From NCBI GenBank assembly GCA_016839515.1, contig JAEOUE010000116.1, positions 1 through 33,041 of the forward strand: DNA of 33,041 bases. Reading direction: 5' to 3'. Shown piece after piece: positions 3,276 through 26,549 of this stretch. This stretch comes from Candidatus Hodarchaeum mangrovi (GTDB lineage Archaea > Asgardarchaeota > Heimdallarchaeia > Hodarchaeales > Hodarchaeaceae). How positions within the stretch are numbered: position 1 is the first letter of the stretch; each line of letters begins with the position of its first letter. The notes below the pieces were generated by a model. That model did no database searches and had not been told where the DNA came from. It saw only the letters and a list, made by a program, of their open reading frames with translations. Position numbers and translations under genes: made by a program.

Positions 3276-6200
3276 TTGAATAAGACGAAGGATCAGAGAC
3301 ATATGAGTTGTAAGATAATGAAATTGGGTAAATATTTAATCGTTTCAATATTAGGTCTCCAAATTATAGCTAGTGCCTTAATTTTATCCATTAATAATCC
3401 TGTAGTTGTAGGAGAATTCTCTAAACATCTACTAAGGGGATTAGAGTATCCTAATAATTTAGAAGAAAGTGTATACCATTCAGTTCCTAGATTAATGAAT
3501 GAATCCTTGGATTCTTATTCTTTGGTTAAACAAGAAACTTCTACTCCTTTAAAACCAAAAATTCTTGATTCATTTTCATTGCCAAGCTGGAACGGCTTAG
3601 GATTCTCATATCGAAAAAATATCACTATAAATCCAGCTAATATACCAATTGATTTATTAAATTTTCCAGTATTGATTGATTTAGAATCAGATCCTGATTT
3701 GGCAGGCATACAACAAATAAATGGAAATGATTTATTTTTTACCGATGCTCAAGGGAACAAACTGGCATTTGAGTTAGAATATTTTGATAAACAAAATCTC
3801 AATCTTAAAGCATGGGTAAAAACAGATATATCTAGCTCAAGTCCAACAGTAATTTCAATGTATTTTGGAAATTCAACCGTTAGTTCTCAAGCAAATCCAA
3901 CCGGAGTTTGGGGAGCTGATTATATGGGAGTTTGGCATTTAAATAACAACCCTGTAGGAGGCACAATGTTCGATAGTACCTCAAATAATAACGATGGTAC
4001 TCCAGGGGGAAGTATGACATCCAATGATCTTATCAAGGGATTAATAGGAAAAGCCATTGATTTTGATGGATCGAATGATTTAATTAATTTAGGAAATATT
4101 AATTCGAACCTTTGGACAGGAATTACAGTTGAGGCATGGGTTTTCCATGATGTTTTAGGAGATGATCGAGTGATATGTAAATCACCTGATTCAGTAACTG
4201 CTAATCATATTTTTTCTTTAGCCATTGAGACCAGTAACAGATTAAGAGTACGACTTTCAACAGATGGAACTGGTGGAACAGTAGCTTCGAGTTTAGACTC
4301 TTCTGGAACCATTTCTCTTGGAACATGGCATCATATTGCTTTTACATGGAGTAGTACATCTGAAAGGGTCTATTTATATATTGATGGAGCTCAAGATATA
4401 AATAATTTTGCCAAAGACGGTGATTCAATAATGGATTCTACAGTTCCAGTTATAATTGCCAATGTAAATAGTGGAACTGAGAACAGATATTTCGATGGAT
4501 TAATTGAAGAAGCGCGAATTATTAAATCAGCCTTGCCCTCTTCTTGGATAACTGTAGAGTATTTGAATCAGTTTAATCCCTATAAATTTTATTCAGTAGG
4601 AAATCTTGAAAGACCTAGCACATATGATCTCTTTAGATATTCAAAACAACTTACAATAGATCATTCTAAAGTTATAGGAACAGCTGACCATAATCTAATT
4701 AATATATTATTTGATATTTATGATCCAGATTTACGAGTTACTGGGAAATTACCAAATAATGGTGAAAATTTGGTATTTACAAACATCGATACAAAAAATA
4801 ATCTTTATTATGAAGTAGAGGAATGGAATCCGACCTACAATTCTACTCACGCAAGACTACGTGTATGGGTACAAGTTGATACACTTTTTGTGGATAAAAA
4901 TACTCATATCAAGATGTTCTATGGAAACCAAGCAAATTATGGATATTATAGACCTGATATTGTTTGGTCAGATTATTTAGGAGTATGGCATTTAGGTGAA
5001 TCAGTAATTGATGAAGGATCAGCTGTAAATGTGCATATAGATTCATCTACAAATAGTAATCATGGTAACCAGCATGGCAACGATGATATCACAGGAATGA
5101 GTGGATTAGCACAGAATTTAGATGGGACTAATGATTATATTGAAATGGGTGATCTTGATATTCTTGAATTACAAGGAGACCAATTTTTTACTTTATCTGG
5201 ATGGTTTTATCGAGATACTGCAACAACATCAGATGTAATAATCGATAAATTTTATCCACAAAGCCCAGATTATACTGGCTACTTGATTTACATTGATGAA
5301 ACAGATGGATTACTTCATTTTTATCAAGGAGATGATGATGATGATGGAATTCATATGGCTTCCTCAACAAATTTTAATACTGCACCTTCTGGGTGGTACA
5401 GCTTTTATATAACTTTTGATACAGGAGTTAATTCTGACACCTCGTCTTGGAATATTTATATTAATGGAAATGATGACACAGCAATCCGTGAACTATGGGG
5501 AATTGGAGCTCCAAGTTATTCAGGTAATGATGATTTCTATTCATCAAATAATCTTGCATCTTTTACAATTGGAGCACATCATAATCTTTCTAATTATTTT
5601 GATGGAAAGATAGATGAAATTCGCTTTATCCAAGAGGAGTTATCATCTGATCGAGTAGCAACAGAATATAACAATATAAAATCACCAGTTGAATTTTATA
5701 GTATAAGCAATGAACAAGAAAACGAAAATTGGTGGATCGATAGCTCATTCGGGAGGAAAAAGGATATTATTCTTGATAATTCTTATTTTGGATCAAATGA
5801 AGAAATGATTTTTCAATATCCTCGTGCACCTGGTTATACTGAAACTTGGAATCACTTTTCGAAGACTGGTGGAACACAGGATTATCAAACATATGACGAA
5901 CAAGTAGCTGATGATGATTCATCCTATATTTACACTACTGTTAATGATTCTTACCGCTACACTTCTTTTTTCATTAAGGGAATAAGTGATTTAGAAGGAG
6001 ATATAATAAGTTTAAGTGTAAAAACTCGTACAAGACGAACAGGGTCTATAATATCAGGGGAAACACGAAGTTTCATCCGATTAAACAATAATAATTACTA
6101 TGGAAGTTCACGTTGGCCATCATATAGTTATTCTACATTTACTGATACATGGACAACAAACCCATTAACATTATCTAGCTGGACATGGGACGACCTTGCA

Positions 6201-9200
6201 AATCTTCAGCTAGGAGTAAGAGGGAGGATAACCTATACTTCGACTATTCAGCTAAGAATCACACAAGTTTATGTAGAAATCAAATATAGTAATAATGGAC
6301 AGTTGTTTGATTATCCTTTATTGGTTGATATTAAAGATAGTGATTTAAAAACTGATATACAATCGAATGGAAAAGATATTGCCTTTTACGATAGTACAGG
6401 AACTAAATTAACCCATGAAATTTCAATCCTAGATCAAGACTTTAACTCTACACATGCTCATCTTCAAACTTGGGTAAAAATGAAAACACTTTCACTTAGC
6501 AGCAGTACTGTTCTCTCGATGTATTATGGCAATAGTACTATTGAAAGTCAAGAACAGAAATATGATACATGGAATTCTTTTAAAGCAGTTTATCATCTTG
6601 AAGAATCACCAGTAGGACAAATAGTTGATGATTCATTAAAAGGATTCAATTTGACCTCATCTGGTAGTATGAGTTCCGGTGACCTTGTTTCTGGTAAAAT
6701 TGGCAATGCAATAGATTTTGATGGCATCAACGATCAGCTATATTCAACCCAGAATATGCAATTTAATAGCTTTAGTATTTCAGCATGGATTAATTTTGAA
6801 AATGGTAATGGCTGGAGAACCATTTTGAACATTGATCGAACTGCGTCTTACCCTAACTGGCTTCAATTAGCAATTACAGATTTTATTCCGACAATAGATG
6901 ATTCTTCAGGTTCATATACATTTGGTAGTGCTTTAAGTACTTATACTTGGTATTATATCACATATATCTATGATAATAACACTAATGAATTACGTGTTTA
7001 TGTCAATGGGGTTCAAGCAGGTTCTATTAGGTTTTTAGTAATTTCTGAAAGAAATGATGATTATGCTCTTGGTGCATGGGGAACTTCAGACTGGTTTGAT
7101 GGACGAATTGATGAATTACGAATTGGATCTATTCCATATGAAAACGCTTGGATCAAGATGGATTACATTACCCAAGTAAATCCTGGTTCAGTTTTACATA
7201 TCGGAAATGAATATGACCATGAAGCACCCCTTATTAATGATTTTGGAGTTGACGATTTCGGTCAGGGCACTCCAATATTTTGGGCAAACGTAACAGATTG
7301 GGATTCAACTACCTCTGGTGTTAAAATACAAATCAACGAAACAGAATATTCTATGACAAAAAATGGAACAGGAATCTGGATTTACCAAGCTACAGTTGCA
7401 TATAATGATTATATTGAATATGCTATTAGTAATTCAACTGATAATAAAGGAAACTATCTCACTAAACCATCTAATACTAAATCAGTCACTTTTAATTACG
7501 ATACGATTAGCCCAACAGTAGTTGACTGGATTTATCTTACTGATACCAAAGAATTTAGAGCTAATGTATCAGATAGTTGGGGAATCATCGATACAGTTAT
7601 TCTAAATGTTACCTACCATGAAAATATGGGAGATCTGACTGATCTATGGGCTGTTATGAGAAATACAACTTATGGATATGTAAATGATACTATTTTTATG
7701 ATAGAAGGAACAATTAACTTTGTTGTGACTGTAAATGACACAAATGGAAACACATTCACTTCAGCTACTCATCCAGGATATGTAGCAAATAACCCGCCAA
7801 GTATCTCGAATCTTCAACTTTCTAAAAATCCTTTAACTTTAGATTTACCTGTAACAAGTAACGATACTCTATTTGTTTTATATGATTATGCTGATACCGA
7901 GAATGATCTAGAATTTGGGACGGAAATTCGATGGGAAAAATGGAACGGTTCACATTGGATCCTGCAATCAGCTTTCAATGATCGCAAAAATATTACTGCA
8001 GCTTCATTAATCCGTGGAGCAATTTGGCAGGTTCAGGTACACCCAAAAGACGGCAAAGATTTTGGTAATTGGGGTATAACAGGAAATATAACTATTCAAA
8101 ACTCAATCCCAATTGTAACAGGGATTTCTTTAACTCCAAGTGCCCCTATTACCTCCTCTAATTTAGTTGCTGCTTATGTCTGGTTAGACGCAGATACTGG
8201 AGATACTGAACAGGGAAGCCAAATTAGATGGTACCTTGATAATGGAAATGGATCTGGATATTTTTTGTTAACAGCATATAATAATCTAAAAACCTTACCT
8301 TTTAGTGTAACTAGCAAAGGTTATCAAGTTTACTTCAATGTTACCCCATCAGATGGAATTGGATTAGGTAATCAAGTCAAATCACAGATTATTACTATTC
8401 AAAATAGTCCTCCAAGTCTTATTGTTAAAATTAATGGCTTTTCAACTCCAGGAACTGTAGATAATGTTACAGATCTAAATGGAAGTTATATTTATACTGA
8501 CATCGATCTTGACAGTATCAATATTTCATCGTTGGAAATACGATGGTGGCGATATAATTTTTCAAGTAGTCAATTTGAAAATTATGTCAATAATACCTTT
8601 ATTATATCGAATACAATTACTAAAACAACTGATTTATGGCGTGTGGAAATGCGAGTAAGTGATGGCACTACCATAAGTTCGTGGTTTTCTTCTGCCACAA
8701 TAAGTATTGGCGTATCTCCCAATACTCCTCCTGAAGCTTTATTTGTAAACCTTACATCAAGTAATCCAGTCGCTGGGGGTTATCTGTATGCGAATTATAC
8801 CTATTATGATTTAAATGGAGATCCTGAAGCCAGTACAACATTTAAATGGTTTAGAAATGGAGTTCACCAGCCTCAATTTGATGGAATGCAGCAGATTTCT
8901 ACGTCTCTAATAAAAAGTGATAATTGGACTGTTTCAGTTCGTCCACAGGATATTTATAATGATTATGGAAACTGGAGTACAAGTGAAATAATTAAAATTT
9001 TAAATACAGCTCCTACAGTAATAACAGCGACAATATTTCCAGCTTCTAACGTGTATACATCAAATATTTTATTAGCTAATTTTCAAGTTGATGATATTGA
9101 TGAAGATAGTGTTACTACCTATTCAATTGTATGGTTGAATGGAACAAAAGAAATTTCAGAACTAAATAACCATACTGAAGTAACAGTAGCATTTACTAAG

Positions 9201-12200
9201 AAAGGAGAGGTATGGAAATATATTGTAAGAGTTTATGATGGAGAAGCATGGTCAAATAACTTTACTTCATCTTCAATAACAGTTTTAAACTCATTATCTT
9301 ACTTAGAAAGTGTTACTTTAATTGGTGGTCGTAACACCTCTCAAGATGTAGGATTTATTTACTCCTTCAAGGATATTGATAATGATATTATTGATACTGG
9401 AAAAACTAAGATTAATTGGACAATTGAATTTGAGGGTGGGGGGAATATTACTGTTAATGGAGTTTGGACACTCTCACATGTATATTTCTCGGCAGGTGAT
9501 TATATTACAATCCAAATCACTCCTCATGATGGAGAAAGTCTTGGATTGGTTTGGGAAAGTTATAGAGTAAGATTAATTATCGGAAATGCAATTCCTCAAG
9601 TTCAAGGACAGCCTAATATTCTCGCTCCTAATAATAGTACAATTTATTACGCATCAGGAAAATTATCTCTAAATTATTCAGCATATGATGCTGATTTTGG
9701 GGAAAGTAGTTCTTTATATAATCTTGATTTCGATCTTGAAGGATATGTTGTAGGAGCACAATACCGTTGGTATCGTAATGGAATTTTAATGTCTGATTTA
9801 ACTACTCCAACCGTTTCTGTTAATTATTTAGCAAGAGGACAAATATGGAAAGCTGGTGTTCGTATTAGAGACCGATTTGGAAGCTACAGCAAATGGGTAA
9901 ACTCTTCATCAATTTTAATCATTAATAGCTTACCATATATTACTTCGTTCCAAGTTTTAAATCCAAATGTTAGATCAGATCAAAATCTTGATATTAAATT
10001 CTCATTTTATGATTACGACCTAGATACAATAAACATTTCTAAAACACTCATTTATTGGTATAAGAATTCTTTCCTTATTTCAGGAACAGAAAATTCAACA
10101 GTAATCTCAGTAGAACAAGGGATAAATCTTTATTACGTGACTATCAGGCTTTATTCTGATTATTACATTCGAGGAGATAATATAACTGTAGAGGTCCAGC
10201 CTCACGATGGTCTTAACTGGGCTATTGTGGTCAATACAAGTTCTACAATTATGATTAGGAATGCAAAACCAACTGCTTATAACGTAAATCTATTAGCTAA
10301 TGGAACATCATCCATTGCTTATACTATTGATCCATTGAATGTTTCTTGGGCTTATTTTGATCTAGATAATGATCCTGAAGTTTCTATGGAAGCAAAAATC
10401 ATCTGGCGGAATAAAGGAATAATTCAACCAATGTTTGAAAATTTTACTTCTATTAATCCTATAAATACCCTAAAAGGAGACATTTGGAGTGTAGAAGTTC
10501 TTGTTTATGATGGATTTGAATGGTCTAGCATTGGGAAGAGTTCTCCACCAATATCAATAATTAATAGTCCACCAGTAGTATTTTCTGTCATAATAGAAAG
10601 TAATTCCCATAATAGGACAGAAACATATGCAGATACTGATTTAGTCTTAGATTTATTGGATAATGTGAATTTTACTGATGTTGATGGAGATTTTATACTC
10701 TGGTATGAATCAGACATTAATTGGTTTAGAAACTCAATTTATATTCCGATGTATGATAATTTAACAATCCTACCTAGTACTGCAACTACAAAAGGAGAAA
10801 TTTGGTATGCAGTCTTAAGAATTACTGATGATCTCAAGATCTGGTCGTTAAATATCTCTTCTCAAACGATTTTAATTGTAAATAAAGCTCCTATAGTTTT
10901 AGGCGTTTCACTTGATGGAAATGAATATAGCGGTTTCTTTGTGGAAGACGAAAACATCACGATAATTATTAATTTATTTGATGTAGACATTGGCGATAAT
11001 GATTCCTCATATCTCTATTGGAGTGTAAATGGAAATTATTTATCACAATTTGATAATCTTCGTACTATTTCAAGTAAATATACTACTCCAGGAGATATTT
11101 GGAGTTTAGAAGTAATTGCATCAGATGGTTTTAGAAATGCTACAACAATTTTTCCCTTTAGCTTTGATATTGAAAGCCGTCCAAGCATTGAAAATATTAC
11201 CACGGAGATTCTTCAAGAGTCTGATGGACAATATTTGATTTCATCACTTATAACTGATGCATTAAATCATTCTATTGAATTAGTTAGGTATAATTTATTT
11301 ATAAATGGAGCAATATTATCTGATTCTGGGTTTATGGCACCTAATTCTACAGGACATTGGAGATTTTCATATGATTTATTAAGCAATGAAAATAACAGCT
11401 ATTTTGGCACGATAGCGACTGTTTACATTACTGCACGATCAAATATAGGAGTAACAACTGTACAAAGTTTTAATTTCACTTTAATTGATGGAGTTGCTCC
11501 ACGAGTGTCTAAATCAGCTGGATCACTTGGTGTTTATTTCAAACCAGATAAAGATACAAATCCAACAAACTTGACTTTCTTTGCTGAAATTGAGGAATAT
11601 GGTTCAGGCGCTGAACAAATACTTCTTTTCTACTATTTTGAGCTAATAGAGGAAGGAGAAGGAGCTTTCTTAGCACAAGAAGATTATAATGTTGTAGAAA
11701 TGATATATCAACGAACTGTAGGTTTAGTACAGATTTATTCAGTAAGCATACCTTTTTCAGCTAATGGATCAAATTTTAATGTCTTATACTATGTTTCTAC
11801 ATTGGATTTGTCTGGAAATCTTAATGAAAACGCATTTGATATTAGAAATTATCCTGATCGAATAGAAAATGAGCGATTAATATATAGGGTACCAGGATTA
11901 CCTGAATGGGTTCTTTTAGTTGCAGGATTAGCTGTATTTCTAGTAATTATTGGTAGTATAGTTTATGTCAAATTTATTCGAAAACCTGAAATAGTAGGAC
12001 TTGATAAAGAACTAGTAATAGCAAAATTAAAAAACATCATAGATTCTGATGTTGTGAACGCTCTCGATACTCATACTATAGGAGTAGTTGTATCCTTTTT
12101 CGACCAACGTCATGGACCAATCCCAATAATCGTAATTCCTGAGATCCTAAAGGATAATTTTGCTAAGCTTGTTGAAATGTCTGATCGATCATTCAGCGTT

Positions 12201-12566
12201 ACAGGATTCTCTGAAGATTTTGAAATCGAAGTGCCTTCAGGTTATGATTTTGTTTTAGCCCTAGGTACTAGAATTAGTGTTTTAACCTATGGTTTTTCAC
12301 TTGAGCGTCCTGAAGCTAGAGGAGGAAGAGAAAATATCACTGTTAATTTTCTGATTCATAAAGAACTCTTCCCTCTCGTTAATCAATTTGTCCCTGAAAT
12401 TCAAAAAGAAGTACATCAAATACATATCATCATGGATAAGGAACCCAATGAAAAAGAAAAGATCTTAAAGAATATTTTTGAATTACGAAAATATCTTTCA
12501 AAGATTATTCTGTCTTATCAAGAAATTTATGGAACTACAGAGCTTTTATTAAGTGAGGAAAAATGA
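3276..12566 (+). CDS. Giant single-pass surface protein: 3x (DUF2341 + LamG/ConA-like), Ig/cadherin-like repeats, TM helix, cytoplasmic longin/uDENN-like domain
   Basis: Uninterrupted 3096-codon ORF; the true start is probably ATG 3303 or 3318. N-terminal hydrophobic signal (KYLIVSILGLQIIASALIL). Three units show YRK.ITI..FPVL.D..WV..MY.GN..W...WHL..DFDG.ND..FDG.IDE. About 11 NxxP/DxDxD/W/DG repeats follow, with many NxS/T sequons. TM WVLLVAGLAVFLVIIGSIVYV at 11907-11969 is followed by KFIRK and a ~200-aa tail. Confidence 0.9.
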   Translation: MNKTKDQRHMSCKIMKLGKYLIVSILGLQIIASALILSINNPVVVGEFSKHLLRGLEYPNNLEESVYHSVPRLMNESLDSYSLVKQETSTPLKPKILDSFSLPSWNGLGFSYRKNITINPANIPIDLLNFPVLIDLESDPDLAGIQQINGNDLFFTDAQGNKLAFELEYFDKQNLNLKAWVKTDISSSSPTVISMYFGNSTVSSQANPTGVWGADYMGVWHLNNNPVGGTMFDSTSNNNDGTPGGSMTSNDLIKGLIGKAIDFDGSNDLINLGNINSNLWTGITVEAWVFHDVLGDDRVICKSPDSVTANHIFSLAIETSNRLRVRLSTDGTGGTVASSLDSSGTISLGTWHHIAFTWSSTSERVYLYIDGAQDINNFAKDGDSIMDSTVPVIIANVNSGTENRYFDGLIEEARIIKSALPSSWITVEYLNQFNPYKFYSVGNLERPSTYDLFRYSKQLTIDHSKVIGTADHNLINILFDIYDPDLRVTGKLPNNGENLVFTNIDTKNNLYYEVEEWNPTYNSTHARLRVWVQVDTLFVDKNTHIKMFYGNQANYGYYRPDIVWSDYLGVWHLGESVIDEGSAVNVHIDSSTNSNHGNQHGNDDITGMSGLAQNLDGTNDYIEMGDLDILELQGDQFFTLSGWFYRDTATTSDVIIDKFYPQSPDYTGYLIYIDETDGLLHFYQGDDDDDGIHMASSTNFNTAPSGWYSFYITFDTGVNSDTSSWNIYINGNDDTAIRELWGIGAPSYSGNDDFYSSNNLASFTIGAHHNLSNYFDGKIDEIRFIQEELSSDRVATEYNNIKSPVEFYSISNEQENENWWIDSSFGRKKDIILDNSYFGSNEEMIFQYPRAPGYTETWNHFSKTGGTQDYQTYDEQVADDDSSYIYTTVNDSYRYTSFFIKGISDLEGDIISLSVKTRTRRTGSIISGETRSFIRLNNNNYYGSSRWPSYSYSTFTDTWTTNPLTLSSWTWDDLANLQLGVRGRITYTSTIQLRITQVYVEIKYSNNGQLFDYPLLVDIKDSDLKTDIQSNGKDIAFYDSTGTKLTHEISILDQDFNSTHAHLQTWVKMKTLSLSSSTVLSMYYGNSTIESQEQKYDTWNSFKAVYHLEESPVGQIVDDSLKGFNLTSSGSMSSGDLVSGKIGNAIDFDGINDQLYSTQNMQFNSFSISAWINFENGNGWRTILNIDRTASYPNWLQLAITDFIPTIDDSSGSYTFGSALSTYTWYYITYIYDNNTNELRVYVNGVQAGSIRFLVISERNDDYALGAWGTSDWFDGRIDELRIGSIPYENAWIKMDYITQVNPGSVLHIGNEYDHEAPLINDFGVDDFGQGTPIFWANVTDWDSTTSGVKIQINETEYSMTKNGTGIWIYQATVAYNDYIEYAISNSTDNKGNYLTKPSNTKSVTFNYDTISPTVVDWIYLTDTKEFRANVSDSWGIIDTVILNVTYHENMGDLTDLWAVMRNTTYGYVNDTIFMIEGTINFVVTVNDTNGNTFTSATHPGYVANNPPSISNLQLSKNPLTLDLPVTSNDTLFVLYDYADTENDLEFGTEIRWEKWNGSHWILQSAFNDRKNITAASLIRGAIWQVQVHPKDGKDFGNWGITGNITIQNSIPIVTGISLTPSAPITSSNLVAAYVWLDADTGDTEQGSQIRWYLDNGNGSGYFLLTAYNNLKTLPFSVTSKGYQVYFNVTPSDGIGLGNQVKSQIITIQNSPPSLIVKINGFSTPGTVDNVTDLNGSYIYTDIDLDSINISSLEIRWWRYNFSSSQFENYVNNTFIISNTITKTTDLWRVEMRVSDGTTISSWFSSATISIGVSPNTPPEALFVNLTSSNPVAGGYLYANYTYYDLNGDPEASTTFKWFRNGVHQPQFDGMQQISTSLIKSDNWTVSVRPQDIYNDYGNWSTSEIIKILNTAPTVITATIFPASNVYTSNILLANFQVDDIDEDSVTTYSIVWLNGTKEISELNNHTEVTVAFTKKGEVWKYIVRVYDGEAWSNNFTSSSITVLNSLSYLESVTLIGGRNTSQDVGFIYSFKDIDNDIIDTGKTKINWTIEFEGGGNITVNGVWTLSHVYFSAGDYITIQITPHDGESLGLVWESYRVRLIIGNAIPQVQGQPNILAPNNSTIYYASGKLSLNYSAYDADFGESSSLYNLDFDLEGYVVGAQYRWYRNGILMSDLTTPTVSVNYLARGQIWKAGVRIRDRFGSYSKWVNSSSILIINSLPYITSFQVLNPNVRSDQNLDIKFSFYDYDLDTINISKTLIYWYKNSFLISGTENSTVISVEQGINLYYVTIRLYSDYYIRGDNITVEVQPHDGLNWAIVVNTSSTIMIRNAKPTAYNVNLLANGTSSIAYTIDPLNVSWAYFDLDNDPEVSMEAKIIWRNKGIIQPMFENFTSINPINTLKGDIWSVEVLVYDGFEWSSIGKSSPPISIINSPPVVFSVIIESNSHNRTETYADTDLVLDLLDNVNFTDVDGDFILWYESDINWFRNSIYIPMYDNLTILPSTATTKGEIWYAVLRITDDLKIWSLNISSQTILIVNKAPIVLGVSLDGNEYSGFFVEDENITIIINLFDVDIGDNDSSYLYWSVNGNYLSQFDNLRTISSKYTTPGDIWSLEVIASDGFRNATTIFPFSFDIESRPSIENITTEILQESDGQYLISSLITDALNHSIELVRYNLFINGAILSDSGFMAPNSTGHWRFSYDLLSNENNSYFGTIATVYITARSNIGVTTVQSFNFTLIDGVAPRVSKSAGSLGVYFKPDKDTNPTNLTFFAEIEEYGSGAEQILLFYYFELIEEGEGAFLAQEDYNVVEMIYQRTVGLVQIYSVSIPFSANGSNFNVLYYVSTLDLSGNLNENAFDIRNYPDRIENERLIYRVPGLPEWVLLVAGLAVFLVIIGSIVYVKFIRKPEIVGLDKELVIAKLKNIIDSDVVNALDTHTIGVVVSFFDQRHGPIPIIVIPEILKDNFAKLVEMSDRSFSVTGFSEDFEIEVPSGYDFVLALGTRISVLTYGFSLERPEARGGRENITVNFLIHKELFPLVNQFVPEIQKEVHQIHIIMDKEPNEKEKILKNIFELRKYLSKIILSYQEIYGTTELLLSEEK
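7788..11170 (+). repeat. About 11 tandem ~100-aa Ig/cadherin-like protein repeats within the giant ORF
   Basis: Units start NNPP, NSIP, NSPP, NTPP, NTAP, NSLS, NAIP, NSLP, NAKP, NSPP, NKAP. Each has an aromatic-x-x-x-D-x-D/N/E-x-D-type loop, a conserved Trp strand and a late V-x-P/V-x-DG strand. The units are diverged at DNA level. Confidence 0.8.
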
Positions 12567-12571
12567 TTTAT

Positions 12572-14827
12572 TCAATTATCCTCTAAAAGAGCTAGGTAAT
12601 GCTTTAATTTTTCAGAAGTCTCATCAACTTCCTTTTCTTTTTTATCAACTTGTTCTGGTATGAATTTAGGGATACGATCTTTCCAACTTTTCTTCTGTTT
12701 AGCGGTAGCTTGAATAAATGTCTGAAGAGAAGCATGAATCAACCGGCTTGCAAAATCAAAAGCTCCATCAGTTTCAAGAGGGATTTGCATTCTATCTTTA
12801 ATTAAGTGACTAATTCCTTCAATAGATAGGCTTCCATCAATTTCAACATTTCCAATGGGATGTCCTCTCTGTAGAAACGATAAAATGTAATTAGCATTAC
12901 CATTTGGTTTTGGTTCTAAAGTAAATGCAACACCTTGACTATCTGGTAATAGAAGGTAGTTACCTTGAACCTGAACTTCCAATGGAACTTTGAATTCGGA
13001 TAACGGGATTTTTTTAATATCCATCGATCCTTCTTTCGGAGACGTAACTAAATCTTTTGTTGATTTTAATTTTTTGACTTTTAGACTCTGGATTGCCTTA
13101 TGAATAATATTCGCTGCAAAATCGAGAGAAGCTTTTCCACCTTCAAAGATTCCCAAAGTTAACATACTCAATTCATAAGCCATAAAGTAGATGAGCTCAT
13201 TTATTGTTACATTTGGTGAAAGAATTGACCCACCAATAAGCTCATATTTATTTTGACCAGTAAAGATATAGAAATTTAATTGAACATTCACAGCTTCCTC
13301 CCCAGCTAACTCTATTCTAAATCCGAGGTCACGAGTATCTGGCAAAGTTATTATCCCCTCAATATTTTCTGAAATCACAGGAATATCGATACTAGCTTTT
13401 TCAATTGGCTTTTCTTTGGCTGGAGGTAGGACAATTTCTTCTTTAACTTTCTCTTTCTGCTTTTCTTTTACTTTTCGCTCTTCTCTTAAATCCTTTAAAT
13501 AACCCTCAGCAATTTGTGCTATAGATAAATTCGGACGTTCTGTAGCAATAACTAAACATTGAACCATCTCATCTTCAGCGATTAAGTTTTTAAGATATGC
13601 ATTAAAAAGTTCCGTAATTCGAAATTTATTCAGAGTACTAATATGTTTTAATTTTTGGTTCTTAACAAATGGGATGTATTTTAATATGACATTTAGTACT
13701 AGAGGAACAGGGATCCCAGATCTAGCTGCCATTTCAAAGAGATCAACATACCCAGAATTCATTAAATCAATTGCTTGTGCTTTTTCAATACGATAATAAT
13801 CAATAAGATGAACAATTTGCTTATTTTCTAATTCTTTCTCAATGGTAAGAGATTCAGAGGAAACAACTTTTATTTCTTCCGTTACAGTCTCAGGTTGTTT
13901 AGGAAAGGAGGATTGGTATGTAGAAGAAGATTTACTGGCTTCTGAAATAAAATTTTCATTTTGAACTGGCTCTGGTGTCATTTTATTATTTAGGGAATTT
14001 TCCGCAAAAGCTTTAGCTTCAGCTTGAGGTTTATTAGTAACAGCAGTGGACAAAAGGGATTGGAGGCGTTGTAAAATGGCAGGATCTCCAGCTTTAGATT
14101 TATCAGCTTGCATTATTGAAATTGTATGTGATCCAACAGGTTGATCTGAAGTTATTGCTGCTTCTGGTTTCTTTAAAATAATTGAACTATCAGCATATTC
14201 CTCAATCAAACCGATTTTACGCCCTTCTACAAATTCACTCTCTGAAAGCGAAGGCATTACGAGTTCAAAGATTCTTCCAAATGCATCAATAACTGTTTCA
14301 GGTTTATAAATCGTCGTTCTAAAAAATCTTAATGATTTAGGATTATATTCAAGTTGAAATTGTTCCTTTAATTGAGAATGAATACTTTCATAATTTGGGC
14401 TAGCACGAAGTAAATCATTTTTATGAAGAAAAACAAAGACTTCCGCTTCAGGTGAAAAAGTATTCAGTTTTTCTAAGCATGCTGCAAAATATTGAATCGA
14501 ATTATTTCGGGTTGTTTTATTTGCAACATCAATTAAATAAATAAAAGTTTTTACAGAAGAAAAAACAAACGGACTAAAGCCGCTTAGAAACCTCTTTAGA
14601 AAAATCTTCTGTCCTCCAAGGTCAACGATGTTAATTGGAGTATCTTTCACATTAAGTGATAGTCTTTCATAGTTTATTGTAGCAGATAGGGAACTAACTT
14701 CCTCAGTTCTCTTTTTTAAAAAGAAAATACGTTTAACCGCTGTTTTACCTGCTTCAGAAAGACCAGCGATTAGAATCTTATAACCTAACCTTTGAGTAAT
14801 TTCTGAATCCGAAACCCATTCGCTCAC
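12572..14827 (-). CDS. Rag/Gtr1-family small GTPase with a ~560-aa C-terminal extension
   Basis: G1 GLSEAGKT, G2 ATINY, G3 DLGGQ, G4 HKND (Rag-type His), G5 TTIY. GTG start. A low-complexity linker, a helical region and a duplicated C-terminal domain follow. Confidence 0.85.
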   Translation of the reverse strand: MSEWVSDSEITQRLGYKILIAGLSEAGKTAVKRIFFLKKRTEEVSSLSATINYERLSLNVKDTPINIVDLGGQKIFLKRFLSGFSPFVFSSVKTFIYLIDVANKTTRNNSIQYFAACLEKLNTFSPEAEVFVFLHKNDLLRASPNYESIHSQLKEQFQLEYNPKSLRFFRTTIYKPETVIDAFGRIFELVMPSLSESEFVEGRKIGLIEEYADSSIILKKPEAAITSDQPVGSHTISIMQADKSKAGDPAILQRLQSLLSTAVTNKPQAEAKAFAENSLNNKMTPEPVQNENFISEASKSSSTYQSSFPKQPETVTEEIKVVSSESLTIEKELENKQIVHLIDYYRIEKAQAIDLMNSGYVDLFEMAARSGIPVPLVLNVILKYIPFVKNQKLKHISTLNKFRITELFNAYLKNLIAEDEMVQCLVIATERPNLSIAQIAEGYLKDLREERKVKEKQKEKVKEEIVLPPAKEKPIEKASIDIPVISENIEGIITLPDTRDLGFRIELAGEEAVNVQLNFYIFTGQNKYELIGGSILSPNVTINELIYFMAYELSMLTLGIFEGGKASLDFAANIIHKAIQSLKVKKLKSTKDLVTSPKEGSMDIKKIPLSEFKVPLEVQVQGNYLLLPDSQGVAFTLEPKPNGNANYILSFLQRGHPIGNVEIDGSLSIEGISHLIKDRMQIPLETDGAFDFASRLIHASLQTFIQATAKQKKSWKDRIPKFIPEQVDKKEKEVDETSEKLKHYLALLEDN

Positions 14828-14985
14828 GATAATCCCTTGATTTTATAGCTTATTGAGAAAGTAATTTGTCTATTGAGATGTATTATCATATTTCTATGAG
14901 TTATGAATTATAGATTCTTTTTAATGCAATGCTAACTAATATATTAGAAAAGCTTAATTAAAAGAATATCATTTCAAAAATCAAT
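14828..14985. promoter_or_regulatory. Probable bidirectional promoter region between the two GTPase genes
   Basis: 158-bp AT-rich gap between head-to-head starts, with several TATA-like tracts and the palindrome CTAATATATTAG at 14936-14947. Exact elements cannot be assigned. Confidence 0.45.
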
Positions 14986-15897
14986 ATGGCAACTCTTCAA
15001 ACAATTCAAAAGGTAGTCTTTCTAGGCTTAGGCCATTCTGGGAAATCAAGCATTAAATCAGTTGTTTTTGAAGGTAAAAGCCCAGAAGAGGTTATGGATT
15101 ACGCTGCGACAATTAACTATACCCGTTCGACAAAAGGGGTTTTAGACAGTGCGTTTCAAATATTCGATTGTGGAGGGCAAGAGAATTTTATTTCAGTATT
15201 TGTAGGTGATCAAGCAGAATTTATCTTTTCTGATGTAATCGTGTTAATCTGGGTTGTGGATGTCTCTAATATGGATCAAATTAGTACTAGTAAATTCTAT
15301 TTTGACCATGCTCTTAAGAGACTAAATCAATATTCCCCTGAAGCGGAAATCTATGTTTTTTTTCATAAAAATGATTTGATTATACAAAATCTTCAAAAAC
15401 AAGTAATAGAAACAATGGAACAATATTTTGTTTCTCCTTATGATAATAAAATCACCTATCGTGCAACTTCTATATTTAATCAGTCTATTTATCTTGCGAT
15501 TGGAGAAATTATTCGTACTTTGATGATAAAGTCAACTAAAGCTCAAACTGTAAGCGAGGCTATTCGAGAATTTTTAAAACAGAATAAAGAGCTAGGAGGA
15601 GTCTCGATTTATACAGCAGAAGAGGGTCTTCCAGTTTTTGAGGAAGGCGAACTAGCAGAACAAATAATTATCCCCGCTAATTTGTGTTTAACAACAAATG
15701 AAAGGATTGGGTCTGAATTTAGTGTTACAGATGTTTTTAAAACCACTATTGAAACTAATGACTATATTTTTGTTTTTCAACATTTAAAAACAACTCAAGA
15801 ACTCCTTTTATCAGGGATTGCACGAAAAATTGCCCCCTTGCAATATGTTATGGTAAAAATGGAACAACTAGCAACTATTGTGAAAGAGTTATTATAA
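14986..15897 (+). CDS. Rag/Gtr1-family small GTPase with a C-terminal roadblock/longin-like domain
   Basis: G1 GLGHSGKSS, G2 ATINY, G3 DCGGQ (as in RagA/Gtr1), G4 HKND, G5 TSIF. The C-terminal ~115 aa show a helix, GGVSIYTAEEGLPV, a helix, beta strands and a final helix, typical of the roadblock/profilin-like fold. Confidence 0.88.
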   Translation: MATLQTIQKVVFLGLGHSGKSSIKSVVFEGKSPEEVMDYAATINYTRSTKGVLDSAFQIFDCGGQENFISVFVGDQAEFIFSDVIVLIWVVDVSNMDQISTSKFYFDHALKRLNQYSPEAEIYVFFHKNDLIIQNLQKQVIETMEQYFVSPYDNKITYRATSIFNQSIYLAIGEIIRTLMIKSTKAQTVSEAIREFLKQNKELGGVSIYTAEEGLPVFEEGELAEQIIIPANLCLTTNERIGSEFSVTDVFKTTIETNDYIFVFQHLKTTQELLLSGIARKIAPLQYVMVKMEQLATIVKELL

Positions 15898-15929
15898 TAT
15901 TCTTTCTATTATTCTAACACATGGATACG

Positions 15930-16046
15930 TTAACGGAAATCACTAGCAGCAAGTAATGCTTTTTTTACATCTTCACCATAATCAAAACTTTCAGAAAACA
16001 TAGCTATTTCGATCTGTTCCATGGCTAACTGTAAAAATTGAGCCAT
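15930..16046 (-). CDS. Possible 38-aa small protein or gene remnant (MAQFLQLAMEQIEIAMFSESFDYGEDVKKALLAASDFR)
   Basis: Read manually, below the ORF-track cut-off. It fills the gap downstream of 16111-16548 on the same strand and has protein-like composition. Confidence 0.3.
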   Translation of the reverse strand: MAQFLQLAMEQIEIAMFSESFDYGEDVKKALLAASDFR

Positions 16047-25799: not shown

Positions 25800-26549
25800 T
25801 TAGGCATCAAAAATTTTATTACTTTCTGAATTATAGTACACATATTCTTCAACAAGAATAGATAAATCTTTACTATTCTTTGATAAAAAAGTGAATATAT
25901 CATCTACAAACTTCATTAATGCAATCTTTGCTCTAGAATCCATTGGTAGAGGAAACTCTTTTAGTATTTTATTTTTTAGGAAGATCAATTTTTTTCTATC
26001 GATTTCTGATTGAATCTTTCGTACTTCGGAATCGAAATCCGTCTCACGTAACCATGGATAATATAGAAAAAGCTCACTTCCCATTGTTTTGTTTGAAAAG
26101 CTATCTTCAAAATCAATTGCCCAAATTTGGTCTGAAGTTATAAGATAATTAGCCCCATGCCGATCTAAAGCTCCTATCCAGGCCTCAAATACAATTAATT
26201 CCTTTAACTTTGTTTCTATCCTGTTTCTACTCTTCTGTAATTCTTCACCTCCCTCAATCCAAAATTGGAGTAAGCCATAAGAATGTCCTATTTTTGATAA
26301 TATAGATTGAGGAATTGGTATTTCAAGAAATTGGGCTAATATGGAAATAATATATTCAGTTAAAAGAATTTTAGGACTTAACTTTTTCCATAACCATTTA
26401 TTATTTTCAGTATCAGTAAAAACAAAGGCTTTTTTTTTATAATTTGTTCCTCTGACAGAAATTGTATCGATGGAGTCCACTAATGAGAGAATTTTCTCGT
26501 GTGAGAATATTGGATAGATTTTGATGTCTTCTTGAGTGGAACCTTCCAT
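25800..26549 (-). CDS. HipA-like / PI3K-PI4K-superfamily atypical kinase
   Basis: WLWKK (beta3 Lys), TEYIISILAQFLEIPIP (alphaC Glu), FEAWIGALDRHGANYL (catalytic loop) and WAIDFEDSF (Mg-binding). Confidence 0.75.
   Translation of the reverse strand: MEGSTQEDIKIYPIFSHEKILSLVDSIDTISVRGTNYKKKAFVFTDTENNKWLWKKLSPKILLTEYIISILAQFLEIPIPQSILSKIGHSYGLLQFWIEGGEELQKSRNRIETKLKELIVFEAWIGALDRHGANYLITSDQIWAIDFEDSFSNKTMGSELFLYYPWLRETDFDSEVRKIQSEIDRKKLIFLKNKILKEFPLPMDSRAKIALMKFVDDIFTFLSKNSKDLSILVEEYVYYNSESNKIFDA

Follow-up and report, generated by a model that had tools for sequence, protein, structure and literature searches.

Does the predicted giant surface protein of an Asgard archaeon end, on its cytoplasmic side, in a relative of the GTPase-activating proteins (GAPs) that control Rag GTPases in eukaryotes? 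The question is raised by a giant open reading frame (ORF) on contig JAEOUE010000116.1 of Candidatus Hodarchaeum mangrovi (assembly GCA_016839515.1), all 33,041 nucleotides of which we refer to as the window, and by two genes for Rag-family GTPases that lie next to it. An earlier note, made from the DNA alone, had read the C-terminal tail of this ORF as a membrane-anchored, folliculin-like GAP domain with R3015 as a candidate arginine finger. The evidence gathered here by computation comprises the topology of the protein, the fold class of the tail, the conservation of its motifs, gene linkage and one longin-Rag fusion, and it leads us to favor, with some reserve, a tail that would regulate Rag GTPases from the membrane.

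In eukaryotes the complex of FLCN (folliculin) with FNIP is the GAP for RagC/D, NPRL2 of the GATOR1/SEACIT complex is that for RagA/B and Gtr1, and SMCR8-C9orf72 is a GAP for Arf. These longin GAPs are heterodimers of longin-DENN proteins, with FNIP, NPRL3 and C9orf72 as the non-catalytic subunits; we know of no DENN domain in Lst7. The arginine fingers equivalent to that of FLCN are R78 in NPRL2 and R147 in SMCR8. In FLCN itself the catalytic finger is Arg164, inserted into RagC according to passages of PMC9473554, and passages of PMC12290439 place a Gly-Pro (GP) motif beside the arginine finger in FLCN, NPRL2, SMCR8 and C9orf72, and not in FNIP2, NPRL3, or the adaptin, TRAPP and DENND longins.

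The giant ORF starts at a TTG codon (3276), which is followed in frame by Met codons at residues 10, 15 and 16. Its parts, in coordinates of the window and amino acids (aa) of the ORF, are the following:

3276 to 12566, + strand: the giant ORF, 3,096 aa, TTG start, a predicted type-I surface protein.
3336 to 3392, + strand: N-terminal hydrophobic segment (aa 21-39), a putative signal peptide or anchor, with a Kyte-Doolittle 19-aa mean of 2.50, the second highest of the protein.
3720 to 4550, + strand: first DUF2341 plus Laminin_G_3 module (aa 149-425), from Pfam.
7713 to 11084, + strand: about 11 tandem ectodomain repeats of about 100 aa (aa 1480-2603), from a jackhmmer self-search.
11907 to 11963, + strand: predicted single transmembrane helix (aa 2878-2896), followed by KFIRK, with a Kyte-Doolittle 19-aa mean of 2.82, the maximum of the protein.
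11970 to 12563, + strand: predicted cytoplasmic tail of 198 aa (aa 2899-3096), a conserved C-terminal domain family; AlphaFold2 (AF2) model with a predicted local distance difference test score (pLDDT) of 93.1 and a predicted template modeling score (pTM) of 0.88.

Only two segments of the protein are strongly hydrophobic, aa 21-39 and aa 2878-2896, the next best reaching a mean of 1.33. Because the second of these precedes KFIRK, we read the ORF as encoding a type-I surface protein whose cytoplasmic part is a tail of 198 aa, and the membrane anchoring proposed in the earlier note accords with this arrangement. Toward the N-terminus, Pfam finds Laminin_G_3 (1.7e-38) and DUF2341 (9.9e-18) in three stretches each. 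The jackhmmer self-search delineates 11 repeat units, 8 of them at a domain E-value below 1e-3; a self-BLAST for repeats returned no rows. The predicted product is a single-pass surface protein in which some 2,850 aa of ectodomain, carrying LamG/DUF2341 modules and about 11 repeats, are joined by one transmembrane helix to the 198-aa tail.

Translation of 12075-12566 on the + strand yields TIGVVVSFFDQRHGPIPIIVIP... and ...TYGFSLERPEARGGRENITVNFLI..., exactly the motifs quoted in the earlier note; the G codon of GVVV begins at 12081, and the codon at 12318-12320 is AGA, encoding an Arg that is residue 3015 when counted from the TTG at 3276. A search of 1.84 billion representative proteins at E<=1e-3 recovered 150 matches to the tail, 127 of them at 1e-10 or better. 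The full tail domain is spanned by 107 matches, in proteins of up to 5,809 aa. The residues that stand out in an alignment of 108 tails include three that concern us most:

12114 to 12119, + strand: Gly-Pro motif G2947-P2948 (codons GGA CCA) in the beta1-beta2 hairpin, tail residues 49-50; G in 108/108, P in 107/108.
12318 to 12320, + strand: R3015 (AGA), candidate arginine finger in the beta4-beta5 loop, tail residue 117; 107/108.
12486 to 12488, + strand: R3071, an invariant Arg in the last long helix (tail residues 162-187); 108/108.

R3015, the residue on which the earlier proposal turned, is thus conserved in all but one of the homologous tails. F2942 and P2950 are likewise invariant (108/108 each), and P2955 (105/108), E3019 (104/108) and N3020 (100/108) follow closely; G10 (95/108) and D12 (97/108) of the tail, encoded within 11997-12005, lie just upstream of the first helices described below. 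Among divergent class-level tails the arginine is present in 15 of 15, in the form (A/M)RGG, and the Gly-Pro motif has become Gly-Ala in three (L056, L057 and L066) that retain the arginine. Judged from the alignments, the tail motifs are far above chance expectation.

For the tail sequence alone AF2 gave an unusable model (pLDDT 41.9); with 34 aligned sequences the confidence rose to the values listed above. The model comprises two parts:

12006 to 12074, + strand: two predicted juxtamembrane helices, tail residues 13-35 (H13-22 and H25-35; AF2 model).
12075 to 12530, + strand: predicted longin core, beta-beta-alpha-beta-beta-beta followed by three C-terminal helices, tail residues 36-187 (AF2 model and VIA-align).

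The span of 12075 to 12566 that the earlier note had assigned to the domain begins at the start of the longin core and misses the two juxtamembrane helices with which the whole folded unit opens. The elements of the core are E36-45, E49-56, H58-78, E88-95, E101-112, E120-130, H131-138, H141-157 and H162-187; they form the five-stranded sheet, in the strand-helix order of longins, with the C-terminal helices of that superfamily. G2947-P2948 falls between E36-45 and E49-56, and R3015 between E101-112 and E120-130, so that the tail keeps both signatures of the GAP longins, a Gly-Pro in the first hairpin and an Arg in the loop before the last strand.

To place the model among solved structures, we compared it by VIA-align with 48,161 representative chains, of which the best 50 rows were considered, and took a second look by a further VIA-align comparison. 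The top chain of the wide search is the Lokiarchaeal longin 8yqg_B (Z 13.8, root-mean-square deviation (rmsd) 3.0 A over 141 residues, 14% identity), followed by 6nzd_H (Z 12.1), 7o2w_A (11.6), 4zy8_C (Lst4, 11.3) and 8fw5_B (11.1), with 6lt0_B (10.5), 8adl_S (10.5) and 6ulg_N (9.3) further down. In the second look 8dhb_J, from the entry titled 'Active FLCN GAP complex', reached Z 13.1 (rmsd 2.7 A, 135 residues, 16% identity). The entry titles name complexes only, and the chains that span residues 2-268/273 in the FLCN entries (8dhb_J and 6nzd_H) are those we take to be the FLCN subunit. Taken together, the longin chains of GAP complexes (FLCN-FNIP2, Lst4, GATOR1/SEA and C9orf72-SMCR8) lie at Z 9.3-13.1, whereas in both comparisons the longins of DENND1, TRAPP, COPI zeta, VAMP7, AP sigma and Mon1-Ccz1 stay at or below 8.9; in the wide search alone DENND1A reaches 8.7 and the TRAPP, COPI, VAMP7 and AP longins at most 8.2. 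The resemblance to the FLCN, SMCR8 and NPRL2 longins suggested by the earlier note is thereby borne out at the level of fold, with Z 12.1-13.1 for the chains of FLCN complexes as against at most 8.9 for DENND1, TRAPP, SNARE and adaptor longins. Of the best 50 rows of the wide search about half are longins, which occupy all of the first 16 places, and roadblock, GAF and LuxR-type ligand-binding domains come lower. The modeled structure supports placing the tail among the longins that provide eukaryotic longin GAPs with their catalytic subunits (FLCN, NPRL2 and SMCR8).

A Foldseek search with the same model placed 6ulg_N first (E 2.6e-4), with LOV domains interspersed. The LOV/PAS matches (E 4e-4 to 7e-3) were dismissed because of their rmsd of 8-33 A and their low VIA-align ranks: no LOV domain is among the best 50 rows of the wide VIA-align search, and in the second look the top LOV-containing chain, 4r3a_A, ranks 38th with Z 6.5.

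Could the motifs then have arisen by chance in an alpha/beta domain of another kind? Neither Pfam nor the sequences of solved structures yielded a significant match when searched directly with the tail, and the Foldseek E-values, with LOV/PAS domains mixed in, were only 2.6e-4 to 1e-3. Against such a coincidence stand the confident AF2 model, the Z of 12-13 to chains of FLCN complexes, 2-4 units above other longins, the poor superposition of the LOV domains, and an alignment of profiles by which hhalign brings both motifs into register with those of an archaeal protein family labeled Folliculin by Pfam; we consider the coincidence very improbable. The representative of that family in the same genome is the following:

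Own contig C238, L009:652-1920, - strand: P0154, a free protein of 422 aa with FDEEHGP and RARG; Pfam Folliculin at 28 bits against a cut-off of 23.3.

Among the Hodarchaeales homologues listed for P0154, 58 of 77 carry the Pfam Folliculin label. The hhalign comparison of the tail family (51 rows) with the P0154 family (26 rows) gave a probability of 87.4% and an E-value of 3.7e-6 over 123 columns, pairing FDQRHGP of the tail with FDEEHGP of P0154 and EARGG with RARGK. R3015 is thereby paired with R94 of P0154, and both fall near position 61 of PF11704 (Folliculin) if the short stretches are taken as ungapped. PF11704 is also the Pfam family that the greatest number of relatives of the tail touch (3 of 34), and its weak matches on these three all fall at model positions 43-105. 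P0154 itself had no match among the sequences of solved structures. The protein atlas offered leads only, namely an archaeal cluster with NPR2 on 19% of its members (0.87) and a fungal LST7 cluster (0.77). As for the surroundings of P0154, a 160-aa ORF that looks roadblock/LC7-like by eye (L009:2309-2791, - strand) lies two genes upstream, beyond a 120-aa ORF, and a Rag-like ORF is found about 4.3 kb away on contig C238.

The tail is a family rather than a single occurrence. The source genome holds seven clear copies and weaker ones; a Pfam scan of one weak longin candidate, on contig C168, found no match. Among 301 sampled genomes of the phylum, searched at E<=1e-10, the domain is present in 50; these include 19 of the 20 genomes of the source's own family, and 20 of 29 and 7 of 11 genomes of two others of the same class. 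It is found in none of the 76 and 68 sampled genomes of the two largest other families of the phylum. A genome may carry up to 10 copies, on frames of up to 10,431 aa. With a 7-sequence tail alignment we further located 45 related loci in other genomes, all metagenome-assembled genomes labeled Hodarchaeota, Heimdallarchaeota, Promethearchaeota, Hermodarchaeota or Thorarchaeota. The giant genes of the family often stand in tandem, head-to-tail, as on own contig C289 (3-9173) and at L058, L060, L018, L022, L026, L033 and L043. DNA near-identical to positions 10500-16000 of the window (69-97% of sampled words) occurs in 20 metagenome runs, from sediment, soil and other sources, that belong to 8 studies; one of these may be where the sequence comes from. 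No RNA run is listed for that span.

What might such a tail act upon? Directly beyond the giant gene the window encodes two GTPases:

12572 to 14827, - strand: Rag-family GTPase of 751 aa, convergent with the giant gene and 5 bases from its stop; PF04670 (Gtr1_RagA), E 1.4e-30.
14986 to 15897, + strand: Rag-family GTPase of 303 aa, divergent from the 751-aa gene across a 158-base spacer; PF04670, E 1.4e-38.

Both possess the PF04670 domain (106.9 bits for the 751-aa and 133.1 for the 303-aa protein, where the cut-off is 22), the Rag-type HKxD and DxGGQ motifs and a C-terminal extension, as expected of the Gtr1/RagA family. In the family of the 303-aa protein, for which the top solved relative is Gtr1 (2.3e-21), H127-K128-x-D130 and D61-C-G-G-Q65 are invariant in 47 sequences. 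The 751-aa protein has its GTPase domain at aa 17-194, with RagA/Gtr1 as the top solved relatives (4.1e-19); no Pfam family was found in residues ~200-751, and its C-terminal 422 aa had no usable match in the protein atlas, while the last ~140 residues are conserved, at 42% identity, in the paralogue on contigs C235/C186. A search of both Rag proteins with the tail model found no related longin in them.

The linkage recurs. In the same genome a second giant-gene/Rag arrangement extends across contigs C235 and C186, the ends of which have 41 identical residues in common, and the giant gene on C112 has Rag-like genes on both sides. Of the 45 loci in other genomes, 14 contain a Rag-like ORF, which at 11 lies no more than 700 bases from the giant gene; where both flanks can be followed for 1 kb or more (15 loci), adjacency is seen at 8. 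The genes are arranged in four different orders. At 13 distant class-level loci, with tails about 30% identical to that of the window, the distance to a Rag-like gene is 112 bases or less for 10 of the 15 giant genes. PF04670 was the best family for all 14 Rag-like neighbors tested. A tree of 65 tails comprises 24 that are Rag-adjacent, 14 that are not and 27 with a hidden flank, and adjacency is found in both deep clades. The complete genome G026, with a single tail gene, has just two Rag-like matches, each less than 3 kb from that gene. Finally, the two domains have been fused in another family of the phylum:

L068:9951-11357, + strand: longin-Rag fusion of 469 aa with GP and ARG; tail model E 2.4e-14, Gtr1_RagA 2.4e-20. 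The first 143 residues match the tail model and the Gtr1/RagA domain comes after.

Two further arrangements were noted in passing. In the tandem pairs of the class-level loci L058 and L060, only the last giant gene is directly followed by the Rag-like gene, and on own contig C98 (1442-5201) two Rag-like genes (336 and 309 aa) enclose a 313-aa ORF with a P-loop-like start, with no giant gene on the visible contig.

From these elements we propose that the tail would be a membrane-anchored regulator of the adjoining Rag-family GTPases, most likely an arginine-finger GAP with R3015 as the finger, and that through it a Rag-type switch at the cell membrane would be coupled to the condition of the ectodomain (ligand, contact or clustering). 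We hold an arginine-finger Rag GAP to be the most likely form of regulator because both motifs stand in the corresponding secondary-structure positions and because of the genetic tie to Rag-type GTPases. Rag binding, catalysis by R3015, the direction of signaling and dimerization are all matters that we infer, and we regard the proposal as a whole as probable, by no means as assured.

Gene linkage speaks for binding, not for catalysis, and the tail might bind Rag-like GTPases without any catalytic role, as a membrane tether or platform similar to Ragulator/LAMTOR or as a platform of the type of guanine nucleotide exchange factors (GEFs), with the Arg and the GP serving binding or folding. The tail is a membrane anchor by construction; passages of Tran et al. 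(PMC10933270) describe most longin/roadblock platforms as scaffolds or GEFs, and passages of Liu et al. (10.1101/2020.10.19.343400) propose GEF activity for an Asgard gene module with a DENN protein. However, GP and Arg are kept almost without exception in the tails, and the GP is confined to GAP longins in the passages of PMC12290439; moreover, the tail is structurally nearer to the longins of GAP complexes than to the GEF-type TRAPP, Mon1-Ccz1 and DENND1. We think this alternative unlikely, while granting it real weight.

A Rag GAP remains the reading we prefer, and several observations weigh against it. At the sequence level, PF11704 has no match to the tail at E<=10 (curated cut-off 23.3 bits); on 3 of 34 relatives it stays below threshold, at 20.3, 19.4 and 12.8 bits (E 5.2e-4, 1e-3 and 0.1), and it also matches below threshold in 8 of 14 control genomes. 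HMMER profile and sequence searches of the tail against the sequences of solved structures recovered no FLCN, NPRL2 or SMCR8 chain; the best match of the tail, MAPK8 (E 0.024), was taken as chance, and a search with the tail-family alignment found reverse gyrase at 0.024 and no subunit of a longin GAP; two further alignments used in the same way gave no such subunit either. The class assignment reaches the FLCN/NPRL2/SMCR8 group, not any particular branch of it such as folliculin, and the label 'folliculin-like' may be too narrow because the neighboring GTPases are both nearer to RagA/Gtr1 than to RagC/Gtr2 while FLCN acts on RagC/D. The giant protein has no C-terminal DENN domain, ending 11 residues past the last long helix, and each of the 107 full-domain homologues similarly ends 0-15 residues past the domain, with no DENN after it. 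Nor was a second longin subunit identified, unlike in the heterodimeric GAPs of eukaryotes; as a speculation, the tandem giant genes could supply partner longins to one another. The conserved loop arginine could be structural, and what bears on the putative GAP activity and Rag binding is gene linkage and one fusion.

The linkage itself has exceptions, for 14 of 38 assessable giant genes have no adjacent Rag gene, and in the complete genome G256, which has six tail and seven Rag-like matches, none are adjacent and the nearest pair is 6.4 kb apart. Such exceptions would be expected if the tail acted elsewhere, on an Arf- or Rab-like GTPase or, independently of GTPases, in dimerization, sorting or turnover of the giant proteins, with Rag adjacency being secondary. 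It would suit this possibility that the best structural match, 8yqg, is titled a longin dimer, that SMCR8-C9orf72 acts on Arf, and that Arf-related (ArfR) and Rag GTPases are both left as partners in the passages of PMC12290439. Yet at 23 Rag-less loci that were examined, the next gene is another giant ORF in 5, and among 32 downstream ORFs of the other 18 no GTPase family was found, the Pfam matches being to unrelated housekeeping genes; Rag genes adjoin the giant gene in several different orders and across both deep clades, and the Rag fusion exists. We judge an action elsewhere to be decidedly unlikely, and return to the Rag GAP for comparison with systems already described.

With FLCN/Lst7 (8DHB, 6NZD and 6ULG) the tail has in common the longin fold, the GP of the first hairpin, the conserved Arg before the last strand and an association with the Rag family, which in the case of the tail is one of genomic neighborhood. 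It differs in its identity of only ~16%, in having neither a PF11704 match nor a DENN domain nor an identified FNIP-like partner, and in the GTPases at hand, which for FLCN are RagC/D and for the tail are nearer RagA/Gtr1; moreover, FLCN is a soluble protein recruited to lysosomes, whereas the tail forms the end of a giant transmembrane surface protein. NPRL2 and SMCR8-C9orf72 resemble it in longin class (Z 10.5-11.8 for chains of GATOR1, SEA and C9orf72-SMCR8) and in combining GP with an arginine finger, and differ as multi-subunit soluble complexes with an identity of 4-12%. Ragulator, anchored by LAMTOR1, offers a parallel as a membrane-anchored module of the longin/roadblock superfamily that could hold Rags, but it is lipid-anchored and lysosomal, consists of roadblock domains and has no arginine finger, and we do not claim homology.

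Closer in organismal terms, 8YQG, the longin of a Lokiarchaeota Roadblock-Longin protein titled as a dimer, is archaeal and the best structural match, but is 14% identical and belongs to a roadblock-longin protein rather than a membrane protein; our literature search yielded no paper on it. The Asgard FLCN-like and GP-Arg longins presented in passages of the literature share with the tail the organismal group, the GP and Arg motifs and, as noted for P0154, a profile-profile probability of 87%; they are free proteins there, whereas the tail is the end of a 3,096-aa membrane protein beside Rag genes. The conserved Asgard operon in passages of Liu et al. contains a Rab-like GTPase, not a Rag, while the tail adjoins Rag genes. 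In the Asgard longin-GTPase-roadblock Rag-like proteins described in passages of Tran et al. 2024 (PMC10933270) a longin of the tail's type is joined to a Rag-type GTPase, as in L068, within one soluble fused chain; here the genes are separate and the longin is membrane-anchored.

Elsewhere in the window, two adjoining ORFs on the - strand (199-1110, 303 aa, and 1116-1670, 184 aa) are coiled-coil-like, with a high content of Glu, Lys and Leu, and have no Pfam family, and a 249-aa ORF (25800-26549, - strand) has a sub-threshold match to the Pfam family PI3_PI4_kinase (E 8.8e-4, 19.7 bits against a cut-off of 27.1).

Parts of this picture have precedents. Passages of Liu et al. (10.1101/2020.10.19.343400) report FLCN-like proteins in Heimdallarchaeia and an Asgard operon with a DENN protein, likened to the FLCN complex, that holds a Rab-like GTPase. 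Passages of PMC12290439 (2025) report Asgard longins with GP and arginine motifs, and ask whether their partner GTPases are Arf-related or Rag; according to passages of Tran et al. (PMC10933270), the layout of Asgard genomes rarely pairs GTPases with their regulators. No publication that we found deals with a giant membrane protein ending in such a tail or with its Rag linkage, though the sequence set of PMC12290439, with 15 Asgard longins, may include a member. As far as can be told from the sequences and these sources, Asgard FLCN-like and GP-plus-arginine longins are already known, and for the receptor-like fusion and the Rag linkage we found no prior paper.

The tail family provides a named pair for testing, namely a tail that is short and folds well, and the two Rag-type GTPases beside it. 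Their linkage recurs over deep divergence, and the predicted architecture puts the module at the cell membrane beneath a huge extracellular domain. With recombinant proteins it can be asked whether an R3015-dependent GAP mechanism operates, and whether Rag control was first a device of surface signaling. FLCN-FNIP, GATOR1 and C9orf72-SMCR8 control Rag and Arf GTPases at lysosomes and are relevant to mTORC1, Birt-Hogg-Dube syndrome, and amyotrophic lateral sclerosis and frontotemporal dementia (ALS/FTD); the tail-Rag pair bears on whether the eukaryotic FLCN-type switch predates the eukaryotes. It is possible, if doubtful, that the protein is a transmembrane receptor-GAP, in which the giant LamG/Ig-like ectodomain would sense a ligand or contact and the arginine-finger longin tail would set the nucleotide state of the Rag pair. 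If so, the FLCN/GATOR1-Rag axis of nutrient signaling would descend from a pre-lysosomal module of the cell surface.

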